DNA of 9,579 nucleotides, taken from the IMG/VR virus record IMGVR_UViG_2541047938_000004. One strand, given 5' to 3'. Both the position numbers and the translations under genes were made by a program. The stretch comes from a virus (lineage: Duplodnaviria > Heunggongvirae > Uroviricota > Caudoviricetes). This document shows, one piece after another, positions 1,553 through 9,579 of the stretch; positions within the stretch are counted from its first letter, which is position 1, and each line of letters opens with the position of its first letter. Under the pieces are notes generated by a model. It was not told the DNA's origin. It did not search any database and worked only from the letters and a program-made list of their open reading frames with translations.

Positions 1553-1741
1553 TCACGAGGACTGAAGTTTCTCGCAATTAAAATTTATCAGTTTTACTTT
1601 CTGCTCTCTGGAAACGCCTGCTTCTTTTTTACCTGAGAGCATTTTTTCGCATTCTGATTTCGTTAGTTTAGATTTTGAATATCTTGTCCAGTTAGTAGGA
1701 GTGCCACCTTCCTTTTCAATAGTGGCGGTAATTTTATACAT
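1553..1741 (-). CDS. ydaC: Small prophage protein YdaC-like (start ambiguous: 1741 with GGAGG SD, or 1753)
   Basis: ORF 1553..1813. The internal ATG at 1741 (MYKITATIEKEGG...) is preceded by GGAGGTG with 5-nt spacing; the alternative ATG at 1753 gives MEVFMYK.... Position between xis and ralR matches Rac ydaC. Function unknown. Confidence 0.65.
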   Translation of the reverse strand: MYKITATIEKEGGTPTNWTRYSKSKLTKSECEKMLSGKKEAGVSREQKVKLINFNCEKLQSS

Positions 1742-2793: not shown

Positions 2794-5386
2794 TTGCATA
2801 TTCCTTAGCCCAGCGGGGCAGTGATAACGTCTTAATAGCTGGCCATTCATCGGTATTGAGGCAGTCAGCCAGGGTTCGCAGATTGCGGTGATATTCCAGC
2901 TGACCTGCCAGTTTTGCTTCTTCGCCCATCATGAAAATTTCAACCGGATAACGTCCGCATTCAATAGTTGTGCTGGCAACCAGAAAAACGAAAGTTGGCT
3001 GCACTCCAAACTGTGCTTCATAACCGTCACTGTAGAATGCATCCTGAACGTGATAGCGGTAGTCGTAATAAGCGGTTTTGAATCGTTGAATATCCGCCGT
3101 AGTTTTCACGTCCATGATCCAGTGAAATTCAGGGATAATTTTGTCCGGACGGCACCGACACAAAATTGCTGTTTCAGGATCTTCCCAGTAAATTGATGAT
3201 TCAGCGTGTCCGGCGCTTTCAACAAGCCATTGCCCCAGCGGCAAAGCCATAACGCTCTGATACATGAGTTCAATTTTCCGGCCTTCTTCGGCAGTGATAA
3301 CCGTTTTTCCTGTGCTTGCGCATTCCCTCAGAAACGCTTTCTCTTCTTCTTTTCCGGAGTTTGTCCGGCGGTTAAATTCAGGTGCTACGATAAAGCGGTT
3401 ACTGAATTCTTCCGGCTCAAGTACCCGGCAGTGGAAAGCGGTTCCTAAATCGAGCGTTTTTGTCTTTGTGGTGTCCACGGGGGCATTTTTACGCCACAAA
3501 TACAGTGCCGGAGTATCAGCAATGTCATCGAGCTGAGACTTACTGACACCGGGACCCGCGTGGTAATTCTCATTCGAAATTCCGTAATAAATACCTGGCT
3601 CTATGTCTTCTACGATTACGGGATCTGCGACTTCGCCAGTTTCATCACTGCAATCGCGATGCGGATCGCTGCCAGCATTCTCATTGTGCGGATGTTCAGC
3701 GCCTTCCATTTCCTCCGGATCATTTTCCTTAGCTTCAACCTGACTCTCTTCATCGAATGTTTCCTGGTATGTTGCGTCGCCCATCACCGCACCACAGTCA
3801 GGGCAGTTATCCCCGCCAGTCTGGCCGCAGGCATTGCAGGCTATTTCCGGTTCCTGTTGCACTACTGGCTCAGGTTGATTCATATCCGGGCTGGTTTTTT
3901 CCGTTTCTGGCTGGTTCTGGTACACACAATCGCGAGTCTGGATCCCCTTTACCCATTTCGGATCGTTCGGGTCGCTAATTCCGTCAACAAATTCACCACG
4001 TGATGCAGCAAGCAATTTATCGGCATCGACAGGATTTTTTGATGGAATGTTTTTCCGGGCTTCATGGAGTTCTGCCCGCAGTTCCTGATATTTCGCATCA
4101 ACAGAATTTACCTGTGACTGAGCATCCAGCGGCTGCGTGTCCTGATGATGTTCAGTTGCGTCCGGTTCCATTGTTTCAGCCTCTCCCTGTTCAACTGCCG
4201 TTGTTCCAGATGGTTGCGGTTTTTCTTCATCATCCTGTTTTCCTTCTTCTGTTACTCGCTGCGGCATCGGGGCAGAGGAGCGACCGCAGGCAATATCCAC
4301 GATTTCCGGATCAGGGTTGGCATGATCGGTTTCAGTCAGTACTTTGTTCAGATATTCAGTGACGTGCGCGGGGATGACCTCGATCCCAATTGGTGCTTCT
4401 TTTACGGACGCAACCACGATGGCGCGGGAATAATCCAGCCCGCCAGGCATGGTGATGAATTTGTCGCGGAAAACAGAAAAGGGCGGTTTATTTTCAGCGA
4501 TAATTTCCTCAATGCGTTTAGCGTGTGCCGGATGAAGGTTATAGATGTCCAGATCCATTGAACGGGCCAGTACGCCAGTGGCTACGTCCCGCGCCAGTGA
4601 CGTCAGATCGTGTACGAAACCTTCGCCGCGATCGGTGAGGTTTCCGCCGCCAGCATTAGCACCGGAAGCCGTGCGAGTGATGTGTGAAACACGATTACCC
4701 TTCATCCACTCTTTTGTCAGCAGTCCTCGATCGGTGTAGTCAGCGTTCAGGTATGCTTCGAAAAAAGCAGTTATCAGTCCCAGGTTTGAATTACCAGGAT
4801 TAGGGAAAACTTTGTCAGTGTCACGAACCAGTTTGTGGAGTTCGCGAATTTCCAGCGGGTCGAGCAGGCTGGTTTTGTGGGAAACAGCCAGGGCAGTAAC
4901 AGCCGGTAGTTCTTCAGCCCGAGCAATGTGTAATGCCTGGAGTCCGTCGCGTGAAACGTGCGTTACCGGTTTTTCGCTGCCGTGTTGAGCAAGCCAACGA
5001 ATGGGCAGTTCCTGGCCAGAAATTGGGAGTAGCATATTCTCCTCAATCTCAGTCATGTCTTCGCCGTTGACGTTGGTATTGCCTTGATAGTGAGCGTTGT
5101 CTGGTGCTGCTCCCGGTTTTAGTTCCCATGTCATGGAGTCTTTGCTGAGTTGATAGCGTTCACTCCAGGTAAAATCGATCTCACCTTCAGCGGGCAGGTC
5201 ATTAACGACAGGAAAATTCGTGGCAACAGCTTTAAAATAGCTGCTCAGTTTTTTACCTGACTTAACGATCAGGTAGTCCAGAGTGGCACAGGTCGATTCA
5301 AAATCGTTGCTTGCCCACAGGACGACGTCAGGTTCACCGGATGATTTTTTCGCTTTCCGTAACAGGAAGAGTGGTTTTGTGCTCAT
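2786..5386 (-). CDS. recE: RecE exodeoxyribonuclease VIII (866 aa)
   Basis: ATG-initiated 866-codon [27 protein letters not shown]... with a C-terminal nuclease domain region (…[32 protein letters not shown]…DVKTT…). Length and sequence match my recollection of K-12 RecE. GAGG lies 10 nt upstream of the ATG. Confidence 0.95.
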
Positions 5387-5457
5387 TGTTTTTTAACCTC
5401 AACTCAGATTAAAATTCGTTTTGTTCAGTGAATGATCTTGCCGGATACACACTGTTC

Positions 5458-5482
5458 ATAGCCTGCGCCATACGCAGGCTAT
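5458..5482. other. Perfect 10-bp inverted repeat (ATAGCCTGCG / CGCAGGCTAT, 5-nt loop CCATA) in the racC-recE intergenic region
   Basis: Read directly from the sequence. It lies 6 nt downstream of the racC stop codon (on the transcribed minus strand) and about 72 nt upstream of the recE ATG. A T-rich run (TTCTTTCAGATTT) follows on the plus strand only. Confidence 0.6.
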
Positions 5483-5487
5483 TTCTT

Positions 5488-5763
5488 TCAGATTTCACCT
5501 TTTAATTTCATTGCAATTAGAGTTGCCAGAAATTCGGCTTTTTTTTCTGCGGGCAGATTCTTTCCGATATGCACCAGGCACATTTTTTTGACACCTTCAT
5601 CAAGTGTTTTTACGTTGCCTGATGGACCATCGATATCAACCACAGTGAATGGGGTTTCTTTATTTTCTGTTTTAATTACGTAGCCAATGCGCTTTCCTTC
5701 CAGATTCACCTCGTGAACAATGTCATCGGTAGTTACAACAGTGGCTTCATAATTGGTAATCAT
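5488..5763 (-). CDS. racC: RacC small prophage protein (91 aa)
   Basis: ORF 5488..5811; ATG at 5763 preceded by AAGGAG. Product MITNYEATVVTTDDIVHEVNLEGKRIGYVIKTENKETPFTVVDIDG... matches my memory of K-12 RacC. Confidence 0.85.
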   Translation of the reverse strand: MITNYEATVVTTDDIVHEVNLEGKRIGYVIKTENKETPFTVVDIDGPSGNVKTLDEGVKKMCLVHIGKNLPAEKKAEFLATLIAMKLKGEI

Positions 5764-5837
5764 GTTTTTCTCCTTAATTAAGGTTGAGCGAATACCTGCC
5801 ATTTCTGGCATAAATTCAGTTTCGAATAGTCAATTAA

Positions 5838-6008
5838 TTAAAGTTCATGTGCCATCTGGTCTTTTTCGGCACAAGCTTCACTGCAATATTTTCTCGGTTC
5901 GTCTTTTGATAAAATCCCGTGCATGAAGTGAAGCATTCTTTCAATAGCTTTGCTTTCTTCAACGTCTTTTTTGCAAAGGTGGTAAGCACATTTTATTTTC
6001 TTAGTCAT
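5838..6008 (-). CDS. ydaE: YdaE-like small Cys/His-rich (probable metal-binding) protein (56 aa)
   Basis: Below the 60-aa track threshold; found by manual translation from ATG 6008 to TAA 5838-5840: [56 protein letters not shown]. It has paired Cys motifs (C-x4-C and C-x3-C). The start overlaps the kilR stop (TGATG). Confidence 0.8.
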   Translation of the reverse strand: MTKKIKCAYHLCKKDVEESKAIERMLHFMHGILSKDEPRKYCSEACAEKDQMAHEL

Positions 6009-6229
6009 CACCATGACTCCGCCTTTACAGGTAAACCATCACGACCGAGGAAGACTTTAATCATGCGGTCAGTAATGCATGTTTTTGTGGTCAGGTTACG
6101 AATATATAGTTTTCGCTTTTTAATATTGTTTGCCGAGGCAATATATGTCCGGCCTTCATGAAGAACATAATCGCCAGGAGTCACACACTGACGTGGTATT
6201 TCATCAGTTCCGAAGTGATGTGCAATCAT
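6008..6229 (-). CDS. kilR: KilR cell-division (FtsZ) inhibitor (73 aa)
   Basis: ORF 6008..6241; ATG at 6229 with GGAG at 6-nt spacing. Product [49 protein letters not shown]... matches my recollection of K-12 KilR. Confidence 0.9.
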
Positions 6230-6410
6230 AATTATCTCCATTTTTACAAATGAACTTTGTTGATGCGGTGCCTGGTGCCTCCAGGTGACTGCAACCAGTT
6301 AACAATTACAGTCGGCTTTCCCACCCAAACCAATAAGGACTAACATGACTTTTAACTGTGCCACGTGCGCTTAGCCGCATTCACCGCATCACAAAATTCA
6401 CTTTAAAAAG

Positions 6411-6452
6411 GGCGGACATCAGCCGAACTTCAAGAAAAAAACTGATGCCGCC
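6411..6452 (-). terminator. Candidate intrinsic terminator on the minus strand (about 11-bp GC-rich stem with one bulge, 19-nt loop, then a T-run)
   Basis: GGCGG(A)CATCAG at 6411-6422 pairs with CTGATGCCGCC at 6442-6452. On the minus strand the stem is followed directly by CTTTTTAAAG (plus 6401-6410). The large loop lowers confidence. Confidence 0.35.
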
Positions 6453-6670
6453 AGGACTACACACAGCAATGTCGTTATTTACAACCGGAGGCGCACTCCC
6501 ACCATTTAAATTTAACAGACAAGACCGACTCTTTATGGATATCGGAAATGCGCCTTCGTGTTGTGCCCGGTTTTATTTCACCACCTCCGGGCTTCGGTGG
6601 TCTCGGCTATACCCCTACAGCGAGAGCTTGTGTTAACATTTCAATACCCTTACAGTTGAGAGTTATTGAT

Positions 6671-7159
6671 ATGTTGGATGTATTTACTCCATTGTTGAAA
6701 CTTTTTGCTAACGAGCCACTCGAAATACTTATGTATACGATTATCATTTTTGGTCTCACTCTCTGGCTGATACCGAAAGAGTTTACTGTCGCATTCAATG
6801 CTTATACTGAAATACCTTGGCTCTTTCAGATTATCGTTTTTGCCTTTTCTTTCGTGGTCGCCATTTCCTTCTCAAGATTGCGAGCACATATTCAAAAGCA
6901 TTATTCATTACTACCAGAGCAACGAGTATTGCTTCGTTTATCTGAGAAAGAAATCGCTGTATTTAAAGATTTCCTTAAAACAGGAAATCTTATTATCACT
7001 TCTCCTTGCCGTAACCCGGTTATGAAAAAATTAGAACGGAAGGGCATCATTCAACATCAGAGTGATAGCGCAAACTGTTCTTATTATCTCGTCACCGAAA
7101 AATACTCCCATTTTATGAAGTTATTCTGGAACAGCAGGAGTAGACGTTTTAATCGTTAG
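6671..7159 (+). CDS. sieB: SieB superinfection exclusion protein (162 aa, predicted membrane protein)
   Basis: ATG at 6671 within ORF 6548..7159. Product MLDVFTPLLKLFANEPLEILMYTIIIFGLTLWLIPKEF... has hydrophobic N-terminal segments and matches my memory of Rac SieB. The 162-aa length equals the K-12 length. Confidence 0.9.
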   Translation: MLDVFTPLLKLFANEPLEILMYTIIIFGLTLWLIPKEFTVAFNAYTEIPWLFQIIVFAFSFVVAISFSRLRAHIQKHYSLLPEQRVLLRLSEKEIAVFKDFLKTGNLIITSPCRNPVMKKLERKGIIQHQSDSANCSYYLVTEKYSHFMKLFWNSRSRRFNR

Positions 7160-7311
7160 CTTACTGTGTGCTTCTCCAACCATCGGCGCGCACCAGTTTC
7201 GGTTTTAAATGTTTTGCTTTTGGTATACGTCATGGCAGTGAACGTTCCATCCTGGTTGGGGAACACGCCGCACACCAGGGATTCGTTGTTGCCGAGGTCG
7301 ATTTTTTGCAT
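7156..7311 (-). CDS. ydaF: YdaF small prophage protein (51 aa)
   Basis: Manual translation from ATG 7311 to TAA 7156-7158: MQKIDLGNNESLVCGVFPNQDGTFTAMTYTKSKTFKTETGARRWLEKHTVS. It is convergent with sieB and overlaps it by 4 nt. Confidence 0.8.
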   Translation of the reverse strand: MQKIDLGNNESLVCGVFPNQDGTFTAMTYTKSKTFKTETGARRWLEKHTVS

Positions 7312-7321
7312 TTTGCGAATC

Positions 7322-7456
7322 TCACATCTTGTTGCTGTGTATAGCGACTTCTGCCTGCCAGAGATCCCAGTCGTTGCTGCGTAAAGCCTGCACAGCCTGG
7401 TTGTAAGTGATACCGCAACAATCCATCAAATACTGAACTACTTCGTAATGCACCAT
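7322..7456 (-). CDS. ydaG: YdaG small prophage protein (44 aa)
   Basis: ORF 7322..7504 begins at GTG; the ATG at 7456 is preceded by GGGGAGAG. Product MVHYEVVQYLMDCCGITYNQAVQALRSNDWDLWQAEVAIHSNKM matches the 44-aa K-12 YdaG as I recall it. Confidence 0.8.
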   Translation of the reverse strand: MVHYEVVQYLMDCCGITYNQAVQALRSNDWDLWQAEVAIHSNKM

Positions 7457-7624
7457 CTTATCTCTCCCCTTAACGCCGGGTGGCGGAACTGAAACCTGCT
7501 GCACTGCAAAATCTGAACCCTGCCGTCATGTTCATACGCCTCGGGCTGGCTACTTAACCCCTGACCACTGCCTGGTAACTCGAAGTATTGCCCTGCGTTC
7601 TGTGGGGCGGGGTGGGTTGGTAGG

Positions 7625-7672
7625 TATATAATGTACTTTGTGTTCATTGATGTAAAGTACTTTAAGTACATT
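7625..7672 (-). promoter_or_regulatory. Candidate leftward (pL-like) promoter with overlapping repressor operator repeats upstream of ydaG
   Basis: Motif copies: ATGTACT 7631-7637, AAGTACT 7655-7661, inverted AAGTACA 7664-7670; AAAGTACTTT at 7654-7663 is a perfect 10-bp palindrome. Minus-strand hexamers TTTACA (plus 7651-7656) and CATTAT (plus 7628-7633) are separated by 17 bp. The same ATGTACT motif recurs in the racR/ydaS region. Confidence 0.45.
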
Positions 7673-7746
7673 TTGTGTGTAAAAAAATGAGATGGGATAA
7701 AGTGAAGCACAAACCCGGAGGGGGACGCTACCGGATTTATGCTGGT

Positions 7747-8166
7747 TTAAGAGGCTTTTTGTTTTTTCTTTCGTGCTAGCTCTTCGTAAATTGCATTGTA
7801 CTTCTGTTTTTTCTCCTCAAGAGTTTTTAAAAGTTCATCTGTCTCACTGTCAGGGAGCTCGTCCAGAAGGTCAATGATGATTTTTTGTCTTGGATTTAAC
7901 TCCTGATAGAAACGTACCTGTCCACTTTCTTCTGTATCCTCTCCCAAAAGATAGGTTGGTGTTGTTCCAATGAGTGTTGCTAATTCCCTTAATTTCTCTC
8001 GGCGAGGAATTGTTTCGCCATTAAACCATTTGCTAACCGCTTTTGGTGTTAATTTCATTCGACGGGCAATTTCTGCCTGCCTTCCATGTTGTTCATAACC
8101 AGCGTTTTCACAGGCTAGCGCAAGCCTACTGGCGAACTCTTTACGCGCTTTATCTTCATGAACCAT
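7747..8166 (-). CDS. racR: RacR prophage repressor (cI analogue), HTH XRE-family DNA-binding protein (139 aa in this sequence)
   Basis: ATG at 8166; the in-frame codon 19 codons upstream (8221-8223) is a stop, so the ORF cannot be longer. Helix-turn-helix signature GRQAEIARRMKLTPKAVSKWFNGETIP. Divergent from a Cro-like gene, as in lambdoid immunity regions. Confidence 0.85.
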   Translation of the reverse strand: MVHEDKARKEFASRLALACENAGYEQHGRQAEIARRMKLTPKAVSKWFNGETIPRREKLRELATLIGTTPTYLLGEDTEESGQVRFYQELNPRQKIIIDLLDELPDSETDELLKTLEEKKQKYNAIYEELARKKKQKAS

Positions 8167-8245
8167 AAGTTCAATGATATTCGCTCTTGAATGTACTGTC
8201 AGTTCTGTTATAGCATGTACTCAAAGTTCACATTGTGAGGGTGAT
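8167..8245. promoter_or_regulatory. Divergent racR / ydaS promoter-operator region (OR/PRM/PR analogue)
   Basis: Direct repeats ATGTACT at 8191-8197 and 8215-8221, 24 bp apart. Predicted racR promoter on the minus strand: CTGACA (plus 8197-8202), 17-bp spacer, TATCAT (plus 8174-8179), ending 7 nt before the racR ATG, implying a leaderless or near-leaderless mRNA like lambda cI from PRM. Predicted ydaS promoter on the plus strand: TTGAAT 8187-8192, 18-bp spacer, TAGCAT 8211-8216. Confidence 0.55.
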
Positions 8246-8500
8246 ATGAACCAGAAAACACTTGAAGATGTAATCAAAACTGTTCGCGTTTCTGTTGTGG
8301 CCGACGTTTGTGGTGTCAGCCAAAGAGCAATCTACAAATGGATGGATAACGGAAAATTGCCTCGCACAGAATATACCGGCGAAACAAATTACGCTGAAAA
8401 AATCGCTCATGCATCAAACGGATTATTTTCTGCTGATGTAATTTTAACTATTGGCAGAAATAAAACTACTACGAAAAAGCTGATGGGAGTTGATTCATGA
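8246..8500 (+). CDS. ydaS: YdaS Cro-like HTH regulator (84 aa from ATG 8246; the ORF also allows a 108-aa form from ATG 8174)
   Basis: ATG 8246 is preceded by GAGG (8237-8240) with 5-nt spacing. The upstream ATG 8174 lies inside the predicted racR -10 element, 8 nt from the divergent racR start, and has no SD. Product MNQKTLEDVIKTVRVSVVADVCGVSQRAIYKWMDNGKLP... has an HTH-like segment. Stop overlaps the ydaT start (ATGA). Confidence 0.8.
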   Translation: MNQKTLEDVIKTVRVSVVADVCGVSQRAIYKWMDNGKLPRTEYTGETNYAEKIAHASNGLFSADVILTIGRNKTTTKKLMGVDS

Positions 8501-8919
8501 AAATCAAGCATGAGCACATCGAGTCAGTGTTGTTAGCCCTGGCAGCCGAAAAAGGGCAGGCATGGGTAGCCAATGCCATTACTGAAGAATATCTGCGCCA
8601 GGGGGGCGGCGAATTGCCCCTGGTACCAGGCAAGGACTGGAATAATCAGCAGAATATCTATCACCGTTGGTTGAAAGGTGAAACGAAAACGCAAAGAGAA
8701 AAAATTCAGAAGCTGATCCCAGCAATTCTGGCAATCCTTCCGCGCGAGCTGCGTCACCGACTCTGCATCTTCGATACCCTGGAACGCCGTGCATTACTGG
8801 CGGCGCAGGAAGCGTTAAGTACGGCAATTGATGCGCATGATGATGCAGTCCAAGCCGTTTACCGGAAAGCGCATTTCAGCGGCGGCGGGTCTTCCGACGA
8901 TTCTGTCATTGTTCATTAA
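8497..8919 (+). CDS. ydaT: YdaT (140 aa), reported as a CII-like regulator that is toxic when derepressed
   Basis: ATG-initiated 140-codon ORF, MKIKHEHIESVLLALAAEKGQAWVANAITEEYLRQGGGELPLVPGKDWNNQQ..., coupled to ydaS by ATGA overlap. The 140-aa length equals K-12 YdaT. Confidence 0.85.
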   Translation: MKIKHEHIESVLLALAAEKGQAWVANAITEEYLRQGGGELPLVPGKDWNNQQNIYHRWLKGETKTQREKIQKLIPAILAILPRELRHRLCIFDTLERRALLAAQEALSTAIDAHDDAVQAVYRKAHFSGGGSSDDSVIVH

Positions 8920-8982
8920 GCAAAAGTTTCCATGCTGTTTGTGCTTATTCTAAGCCACCGGGCAGCATCATACGGGGCAATT

Positions 8983-9579
8983 ATGGCCGCATTACCATAC
9001 ATGCAACTGTACATAGCTGATTACCTGGCTGACACCATGCATTTGTCAGCAGAGGAGCATGGTGCGTATTTGTTGCTGATGTTCAATTACTGGCAAACAG
9101 GAAAGCCAATACCTAAAAACAGGCTGGCAAAAATTGCCCGTCTGACTAACGAGCGATGGGCTGATGTTGAACCATCCTTGCAGGAGTTTTTTTGCGATAA
9201 CGGCGAGGAATGGGTGCATCTTCGGATTGAGGAAGATCTGGCATCAGTCAGGGAAAAATTAACCAAAAAATCAGCCGCAGGAAAAGCATCTGTTCAGGCC
9301 AGAAGAAGCAGAAAGGAAGCAGATGTTCAAACAAAACAAGAGAGAAATTTAACAGGTGTTCAAACAGATGTTGAAGTGGTGTTTGAACATGATGTCAACA
9401 CAAAGGCAACTAATAAAGATACAGATAAAGATCTAAAAACAGATCCCCCCCTAAATCCCCCTCGGGGGAATCGAGGTGTCAAAAAGTTTGACCCTCTGGA
9501 TATTGCTTTGTCCGCTTTGTGCCAGGAGCAGACGTTACTAACATCTATCTGCATCAATCTGTGGGGAGCAGAACCGTGA
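8983..9579 (+). CDS. ydaU: YdaU-family putative replication initiator (lambda O-like position), 198 aa from ATG 8983; stop TGA is the last codon of the window
   Basis: ORF 8932..9579. ATG 8983 (MAALPYMQLYIADYLADTMHLSAEEHGAYLLLMFNYWQTGKPIPKNRLAKIARL...) is preceded by a GGGG run; ATG 8932 has no SD. The coding sequence contains an iteron-like repeat array and AT-rich block (separate feature), as lambda O contains ori. Functional assignment is by position and architecture; the name is from my recollection of Rac. Confidence 0.7.
   Translation: MAALPYMQLYIADYLADTMHLSAEEHGAYLLLMFNYWQTGKPIPKNRLAKIARLTNERWADVEPSLQEFFCDNGEEWVHLRIEEDLASVREKLTKKSAAGKASVQARRSRKEADVQTKQERNLTGVQTDVEVVFEHDVNTKATNKDTDKDLKTDPPLNPPRGNRGVKKFDPLDIALSALCQEQTLLTSICINLWGAEP
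9283..9476 (+). other. Candidate replication origin embedded in ydaU: direct repeats at 33-bp spacing, one inverted copy, AT-rich block, GC-rich dyad
   Basis: TGTTCA at 9291, 9324 and 9357 (exactly 33 bp apart). The 10-mer TGTTCAAACA occurs at 9324-9333 and 9357-9366, with its inverted copy TGTTTGAACA at 9380-9389. The block 9401-9444 is about 73 percent A+T. It is followed by the GC-rich dyad CCCCC-TC-GGGGG (9457-9468) within 9445-9476. Confidence 0.45.

Follow-up and report, generated by a model that had tools for sequence, protein, structure and literature searches.

The closest described relatives of the locus analyzed here are the immunity regions of the Stx phages 933W and 24B and of phage HK022. 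The 933W repressor recognizes a symmetric 15-bp site in which positions 2-5 (G, A/T, A, C) are critical, and it binds its homologous sites in vitro (PMC3317979). There are five natural 933W sites and no OL3, binding is non-cooperative, and DNase protection covers two blocks of ∼6 bp (PMC3317979; PMC5977221). The HK022 CI protein is described, in a secondary citation, as binding adjacent operators and looping OL to OR (Carlson & Little 1993, as cited in PMC8053113); our literature search gave secondary citations for the HK022 operators, and the HK022 sites used below were read from the genome record. A different precedent is the Rac prophage of E. coli K-12, whose RacR operators, O1-O3, have been footprinted and are of the form WTAGGC-N3-GCCTAW (PMC9638921). 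The retrieved passages of the RacR papers place O1-O3 between racR and ydaS, together with a half-site in racR, and say that a detailed characterization of the RacR regulon is lacking. Short Gifsy repressors, finally, are inactivated by antirepressors (PMC3121763). The literature search returned no paper on the allele described below, nor any that ties Rac-type prophages to 933W/HK022-type immunity.

We analyzed a window of 9,579 nucleotides, the whole stretch of a Caudoviricetes record (IMGVR_UViG_2541047938_000004), in which a first-pass annotation had singled out direct repeats of ATGTACT as putative RacR operators. The repeats themselves are as described: ATGTACT occurs twice on the + strand, at 8191-8197 and 8215-8221, 24 bp apart, and both copies lie inside the 79-bp gap between a leftward gene for a 139-aa HTH protein (7747-8166) and a rightward gene that starts at 8246. 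The hexamers TTGAAT (8188-8193) and TAGCAT (8211-8216) are present with a 17-bp spacer, each overlapping one copy of the heptamer, and the first copy touches the -35 edge of the predicted leftward repressor promoter (CTGACA-17-TATCAT). The claim that this clustering exceeds chance is also borne out: there are four copies of ATGTACT in the window against 0.83 expected, a number reached in 1 of 200 shuffles. Two further copies, at 7631 (+) and 7665 (-), had escaped notice.

The unit of recognition, and the number of sites, have to be revised. The heptamers had been taken as a direct repeat forming two sites, but each is half of a 15-17-bp rotationally symmetric site: an inverted partner starts 3 bp after each heptamer, producing the 17-bp pseudo-palindrome ATGWACT-N3-AGTWCAT. 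The "direct repeat" is the left halves of two symmetric dimer-type sites (8191 and 8215), and five sites are found in all, the third lying over the repressor start codon and an extra pair 520-590 bp away. GTACT-N3-AGTWC, at 7633, 7657, 8193 and 8217, gives seven strand-matches at four places against 0.48 expected, which none of 200 shuffles reached. With up to two mismatches allowed, ATGWACT-N3-AGTWCAT has five sites in the window against 0.09 expected, and the maximum in 300 simulations was one. All of these sites fall in two clusters (7631 and 7655; 8158, 8191 and 8215), the first a pair 24 bp apart and the second with centers 33 and 24 bp apart, and each of the five differs from the core GWACT-N3-AGTWC at no more than one position. 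Only one other match with up to three mismatches occurs in the window, AATTAATTAAAGTTCAT at 5832-5848; about 1.3 such matches are expected, and we rejected it as chance. Because both patterns were taken from the window's own sites, the independent test of them is provided by the 36 other loci considered below.

Tandem direct repeats are bound by excisionase-like or P2 C-type regulators, and the exact, same-orientation copies of ATGTACT 24 bp apart could be read as a target of that kind; a repeat search does group the sites as direct-repeat families. Against this reading, every copy has an inverted AGTWC 3 bp after it. One of the OL sites moreover faces the other way, and OL2 is perfectly palindromic.

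We name the five palindromic sites after their positional counterparts in lambdoid phages. The OR1-like operator (ATGTACTCAAAGTTCAC, 8215-8231, core 8217-8229) has one mismatch to the 17-mer and holds the second ATGTACT. It is the site closest to the rightward, cro-like gene, and the rightward, PR-like promoter has the end of its -10 and its expected start point within it. The majority of the 36 related loci have a counterpart near -68, counted from the repressor start, and the site matches in position the annotated OR1 of 24B. The OR2-like operator (ATGTACTGTCAGTTCTG, 8191-8207, core 8193-8205) holds the first ATGTACT and overlaps the -35 hexamers of two promoters, the PR-like one and the leftward one of the repressor (CTGACA). 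Its counterpart is found at about -44 in related loci, and in position it matches OR2 of 24B, which likewise contains the -35 of pRM. The OR3-like operator (ATGAACCATAAGTTCAA, 8158-8174, core 8160-8172) has two mismatches to the 17-mer and spans the repressor start codon (8166-8164), the ATG falling in its spacer, as well as the edge of the repressor-promoter -10. About half of the related loci have a counterpart at about -11 (up to three mismatches), and the cI ATG is also covered by OR3 of 24B (CGTACTCATGGTTCA) and by an HK022 site (position 1788 of the HK022 locus, L043).

The remaining two sites lie beyond the other end of the repressor gene. The OL1-like operator (ATGTACTTTGTGTTCAT, 7631-7647, core 7633-7645) overlaps the -10 (CATTAT) and spacer of a leftward, PL-like promoter, and the OL2-like operator (AAGTACTTTAAGTACAT, 7655-7671, core 7657-7669), a perfect GTACT-N3-AGTAC palindrome, abuts or overlaps its -35 (TTTACA). 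The OL2-like core differs from the 933W-type OR1 (GTACT-TTC-AGTAC) only in the spacer. HK022 has two further operators, an OL3 at a distance of 53 bp from OL2 and one located between cro and cII, neither of which was found in the window; the sequence at the position corresponding to OL3 (7708-7724) has no resemblance to such a site, so that the window, like 933W, has two OL sites.

All three predicted promoters are overlapped by at least one of these sites, and the operator word is found at two promoters that face in opposite directions. The PR-like promoter (TTGAAT-17-TAGCAT, 8188-8216, +), which we read from the sequence, would serve the cro-like/ydaT operon. It agrees with the consensus at 8 of 12 positions, one below the cut-off of 9 used by our scanner, and is for that reason absent from the promoter-scan list; its placing relative to OR1 and OR2 is that of the annotated pR of 24B. 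The PRM-like promoter (CTGACA-17-TATCAT, 8174-8202, -) was found by the scan, with 10 of 12 positions. Only 7 nt separate its -10 from the ATG at 8166, and the repressor mRNA is therefore probably leaderless. In 24B, transcription from the annotated pRM begins a single base upstream of the cI ATG, and leaderless mRNAs have been reported for paaR2 as well as for PracR3, a racR promoter of K-12. The PL-like promoter (TTTACA-17-CATTAT, 7628-7656, -) was likewise found by the scan (9 of 12), lies inside the 7631/7655 pair and faces ydaG, ydaF, kilR, ydaE, racC, recE and recT. In the OL sequence of 24B we read TTGATA-17-CATTAT, with the same -10 over the outer edge of OL1.

This overlap with promoters admits another explanation, in which the repeats are mere promoter elements, or resemble one another by chance, and have no dedicated regulator. 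The -35 and -10 hexamers are themselves constrained, the stretch is AT-rich, and the promoter scan is no richer in the window than in shuffled sequence (two found against 1.6 expected). Promoter constraint of this kind leaves unexplained the five sites found where 0.09 are expected, as it does the recurrence of the same word at promoters of opposite direction, and it can be judged further from the conservation of the sites elsewhere.

To compare the sites across related loci, we scanned one genome per species for the repressor domain, which yielded 37 loci; the locus identical to the window was left out and the other 36 were analyzed. They come from genera that include Kluyvera, Klebsiella, Enterobacter, Brenneria, Pantoea, Salmonella and Providencia, and also Vibrio, Photobacterium, Haemophilus and other Pasteurellaceae, Pseudomonas and Salinicola. 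In 33 of the 36, a site with up to two mismatches lies within 105 bp upstream of the repressor start, usually at offsets of -68, -44 and -11 and, in the Pasteurellaceae, at -88, -64 and -31. A second pair, 22-30 bp apart, is found downstream of the repressor gene in 25 of the 36. Site density is 12.8 per kb upstream as against 0.23 per kb elsewhere, and the total of 110 sites observed compares with 0-6 in simulations. Fixed offsets in so many genera, at promoters that differ, together with the binding in vitro of the homologous 933W sites (PMC3317979), argue for a dedicated regulator, and we give hardly any credence to the view that the repeats are promoter elements or accidents.

The same loci bear on the symmetry of the unit. 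Among 284 pooled half-sites, G is found in 282, A in 283 and C in 278, or 98-100%, and the position just ahead of the conserved G holds T in 223 half-sites and C in 1. Left and right halves were pooled in this count, so that both halves are conserved and a one-sided direct repeat is ruled out, and the 933W repressor protects two symmetric blocks (PMC3317979). It is thus very improbable that a tandem-direct-repeat binder, rather than a protein that reads the palindrome, is the regulator of these sites.

Across these loci the repressor homologues are either short (138-151 aa) or bear an S24 domain (235-240 aa), and in both groups the recognition-helix sequence TPKAVSKWFNGE is invariant. One operator word and one layout accompany the TPKAVSKW domain from Enterobacteriaceae to Vibrio, Pasteurellaceae, Pseudomonas and Salinicola, an unusually wide conservation for a phage immunity specificity; the part attached at the C-terminus is an S24 peptidase in some proteins and a short tail in others. 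We also came upon a 1026-bp contig titled Streptomyces sp. NPDC002677 with an HK022-like repressor and operators that have the look of those in enterobacterial prophages; it is probably contamination of the Streptomyces assembly.

We now turn to the identity of the regulator. The first-pass annotation had named the two divergent genes racR and ydaS and had made RacR the silencer, and neither name fits. The 139-aa repressor aligns with K-12 RacR by BLASTP over only 12 of 33 identical residues in the HTH (25.8 bits), and the RefSeq names differ, the repressor not being called RacR. The 84-aa protein has no match to PF15943 (YdaS_toxin), against which K-12 YdaS scores 107.7 bits. Part of the proposal stands: it is very probable that the sites are operator elements that silence the cro-like/ydaT operon, but RacR does not qualify as the protein that binds them.

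The attribution to RacR had position in its favor. The genes take the place of racR and ydaS in a Rac-type prophage at ttcA, with ydaF/ydaG and ydaT alongside, and the geometry is that reported for RacR (6-N3-6 palindromes, three intergenic sites, one over the start codon). The RacR word itself tells otherwise: the exact WTAGGC-N3-GCCTAW is absent from the window, and with up to three mismatches it has four matches there, below the 8.4 expected, none of them in the cassette or in 7600-8300. The DNA that carries the sites is also foreign to K-12. By blastn, K-12-type Rac sequence aligns with 4400-7622 at 99.5% and with 8491-9514 at 99.0%, with no alignment between, so that 7623-8490 is a different immunity cassette. 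This 868-bp cassette, comprising the OL pair, the repressor, the OR triple and cro, replaces the racR-ydaS cassette of K-12 between ydaF/ydaG and ydaT. K-12 RacR as the regulator is refuted at the sequence level, and we leave it practically no chance of being the protein that reads these sites. Work on the essentiality of RacR concerns a different allele and applies to the window cassette by analogy only.

The window is 100% identical to the Rac-type prophage at ttcA of E. coli strain 1428, and the cassette is common. A 1.2-kb query spanning it (7400-8600) is matched over at least 80% of its length in about 1000 of 5426 complete genomes, where the repressor is conserved together with its sites, as against 28% coverage in K-12-type strains. 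In many E. coli genomes related DNA recurs, at up to nine places per genome.

The K-12-type cassette can be read in the same terms. In K-12-type DNA, WTAGGC-N3-GCCTAW has five sites, three between racR and ydaS and two downstream of racR. The downstream sites (ATAGGTAATGCCTAA, 3230-3244, and ATAGGCTATGCCTAA, 3255-3269, of the K-12-type Rac locus L002) are 25 bp apart, at the position equivalent to OL and 10 bp inside the cassette boundary; the passages retrieved from the RacR literature hold no description of this pair. When RacR is lost or lowered in K-12, ydaG, ydaF, kilR, ydaE and racC rise 40-70-fold (PMC11014345). The downstream pair would account for this rise of ydaG, ydaF and kilR, which fits a repressor-controlled leftward promoter at the PL-like position. 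The same layout of two plus three sites, written in different words in the two cassettes, is the familiar pattern of lambdoid immunity regions that can be swapped for one another.

The proteins encoded by the window cassette belong to another family. The repressor gene (7747-8166, -; 139 aa, WP_000233320) combines an HK022/933W-type CI N-terminal DNA-binding domain with a short DicA-like tail. It is intact, and its product shares 100% identity with the protein annotated as CI in Escherichia phage Tritos. Over its first 73 to 102 residues the protein has 50.7% identity to 933W-type CI and 47.5% to HK022 CI. The recognition helix reads PKAVSK in the window, SKGVSK in 933W-type CI and PKAISK in HK022, and K42, V44, S45 and K46 are conserved between the window repressor and 933W-type CI; in the 933W repressor, K42 and K46 have been modelled or mutated as DNA contacts by the Koudelka laboratory (PMC3317979). 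The repressor has no PF00717 match, and the S24 peptidase part is missing from the alignment, which bears on the mechanism of induction and not on the operator class. We also considered membership of the DicA family: the NCBIfam DicA model NF007257 aligns with residues 29-137 at 56.8 bits, below its cut-off of 101, and membership was rejected, although the architecture resembles DicA all the same. Searching the PDB by sequence turned up nothing beyond a weak match (E = 0.0057) to the N-terminal domain of P22 C2, which is uninformative on specificity. Between the repressor stop and the OL pair, CCGGTAGCGTCCCCCTCCGG followed by GTTT (7700-7746, - strand) could be a weak terminator of the repressor transcript, comparable to the annotated tRM of 24B; the terminator scan did not call this region.

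The divergently transcribed cro-like gene (8246-8500, +; 84 aa, WP_001072343) is preceded by a GAGG Shine-Dalgarno sequence at 8236-8239. Its product has 47% identity to the 933W-type Cro of 24B (E = 5e-24), and the alignment begins at residue 4, which supports the start at 8246; the RefSeq start is equivalent. Tritos annotates Cro as a longer, 108-aa ORF that starts inside the operator region, and homology to 933W-type Cro favors the 84-aa start.

The operators are shared by the Cro homologues of lambdoid phages, as is established for lambda and reported for the YdaS of CP-933P, and the main users of the window sites might then be the Cro-like protein or an HK022/933W-type repressor of another prophage in the same cell, with the resident repressor defective or directed to some other target. 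The up to nine places per genome with related DNA, and the unusual C-terminal part of the resident protein, speak for this possibility. Set against them are the intact gene and its complete identity to Tritos CI, the conservation of the repressor with its sites in over 1000 E. coli genomes, and a recognition helix that is the family's invariant TPKAVSKWFNGE. We judge it improbable that the resident repressor is not the main user of its own sites.

The cassette of Tritos itself (2147-3205 of L041) corresponds to window 7465-8520 at 96.5% identity and has other neighbors: DicF, dicB and ydfD on the left and, in the place of ydaT, a "Rha family regulator" on the right. On the left the homology runs ∼155 bp past the junction with K-12, into the PL leader. 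On the right, a perfect YdaT-type inverted repeat, TTGATTCATGAAAATCAA (8490-8507), lies across the stop codon of the cro-like gene and the ydaT ATG. Its K-12 counterpart, ATGATTCATGAAAATCAA, is the "YdaT-box" mapped by footprinting, through which a reverse promoter within ydaS is activated (PMC11879457). The two sequences differ at one base, 8490, with which the swapped cassette ends. Another repeat that resembles the YdaT-box, TTGATTATTAATAATCAG (1504-1521, one mismatch), is found in the interval from xisR to rcbA, immediately ahead of the RalA sRNA; it may be a chance match, since ∼1.2 matches with up to two mismatches are expected in the window. RalA, the antitoxin of RalR and a known Rac element, is at 1557-1735 (+) and scores 225 bits against a gathering score of 170.

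Taken together, the sites, their symmetry, the positions of the promoters and the homology of the two proteins to CI and Cro, with a layout kept across the 36 loci, make it highly probable that the ATGTACT copies are half-sites in a five-operator lambdoid cassette of the HK022/933W specificity class that is read by the 139-aa repressor. Most likely, a dimer of this protein would sit on each site, with one HTH per GWAC half-site. Repressor at OR1 and OR2 would occlude the PR-like promoter, shutting off the cro-like gene, ydaT and whatever lies downstream, and repressor at OL1 and OL2 (7631-7671) would occlude the PL-like promoter that is predicted to drive ydaG, ydaF and kilR, on to recET. At OR3, over its own start codon and the start of its leaderless transcript, the repressor would exert negative autoregulation, and the 84-aa Cro homologue would presumably compete for these sites with the opposite effect. 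Against this reading, the PR-like promoter agrees with only 8 of 12 consensus positions, and OR2 overlaps the -35 of the predicted promoter from which the repressor would have to be expressed in the repressed state; in lambda, OR2 activates the repressor promoter. The order in which the window sites fill, and any cooperativity or looping between OL and OR, we infer rather than observe; the C-terminal part of the repressor is unlike that of HK022 and 933W CI, so that dimerization and cooperativity are not transferable from those proteins. The same part of the protein offers a clue to how repression would be lifted: in a repressor with no S24 autocleavage, an antirepressor, or no induction, is likelier than RecA-stimulated cleavage. 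Together with the DicA-like layout, and by analogy, this makes the antirepressor route of the short Gifsy repressors our best guess.

These results replace annotation by position with annotation by sequence: many E. coli Rac-type prophages do not carry RacR and YdaS, so that K-12 findings on RacR operators and essentiality cannot be transferred to them by name. For the window allele we provide a map of five sites and three promoter predictions. The tie of one word and one layout to one DNA-binding domain in many Gammaproteobacteria, whatever the C-terminal domain, should be useful for predicting immunity groups. We raise tentatively, as a rather unlikely consequence, that the non-cleavable repressor could occupy the operators of co-resident or incoming phages that are HK022-like, or perhaps of 933W-like Stx phages. 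If it did, such cross-occupancy would produce SOS-insensitive cross-immunity, or damped Stx-phage induction, in strains that carry both.

It is instructive to compare the window cassette with each of the known systems. K-12 RacR shares with it the chromosomal position, the flanking genes, 6-N3-6 palindromes, three intergenic sites with one over the start codon and, by our own scan, a pair downstream of the repressor; silencing of ydaT and of the kilR side is presumed in both. In contrast, the repressor, the Cro/YdaS proteins and the operator word are all unrelated in sequence. The Gifsy repressors GfoR and GtgR, and DicA, are likewise short (∼140 aa) and lack an S24 domain, but the DNA-binding domain of the window protein is of the HK022/933W type and its DicA score is below the cut-off. 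With HK022 the likeness is closer: the recognition helix is almost identical (TPKAISKWFNGE as against TPKAVSKWFNGE in the window's family), sites with the same word stand at matching OR and OL positions, one of them over the cI ATG, and the OL pair is 24 bp apart (2563 and 2587 of L043), as in the window. The distance from OL to OR is about 700 bp in HK022 and roughly 550 bp in the window, and HK022 CI, with its 235 aa, includes a C-terminal domain missing from the window repressor.

The correspondence extends to 933W and 24B, which share the core GWACT-N3-AGTWC and the arrangement of three OR and two OL sites with no OL3. The 24B record annotates OR1 as CGTACTTTCAGTACG, OR2 as (T)GAACTGAAAGTTT(T) and OR3 as CGTACTCATGGTTCA, and the 24B operators CGTACTTTCAGTACG, TGAACTGAAAGTTTT and CGTACTCATGGTTCA have the same core as the window sites. 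Center-to-center distances in OR are ∼24.5 and 31.5 bp in 24B and 24 and 33 bp in the window. In 24B the interval from OR1 to OR2 holds the -10 of pR, whose -35 is at the distant edge of OR2, with the -35 of pRM inside OR2, and both promoters are placed alike relative to the sites in the window. The OL pair of 24B (TGAACCAATAGTTCG and AGAACTATTGGTACG) is 24 bp apart (1562 and 1586 of L042), beside nutL, like the 7631/7655 pair, and in both systems OR3 covers the cI start codon and the cI transcript is leaderless, a prediction in the case of the window. The differences lie elsewhere. The 933W and 24B proteins have an S24 autocleavage domain, whereas the window repressor is a 139-aa protein with a DicA-like tail, and the host element is a Stx phage in the one case and a Rac-type prophage in the other. 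The first residue of the recognition helix is S in 933W and P in the window repressor, and the base before the conserved G is C in about half of 933W-type half-sites and T in the window, so that the two specificities may overlap and yet not be identical. The mechanism is that of the standard lambdoid switch, and the window operators are an uncharacterized new case within a well-studied operator class.
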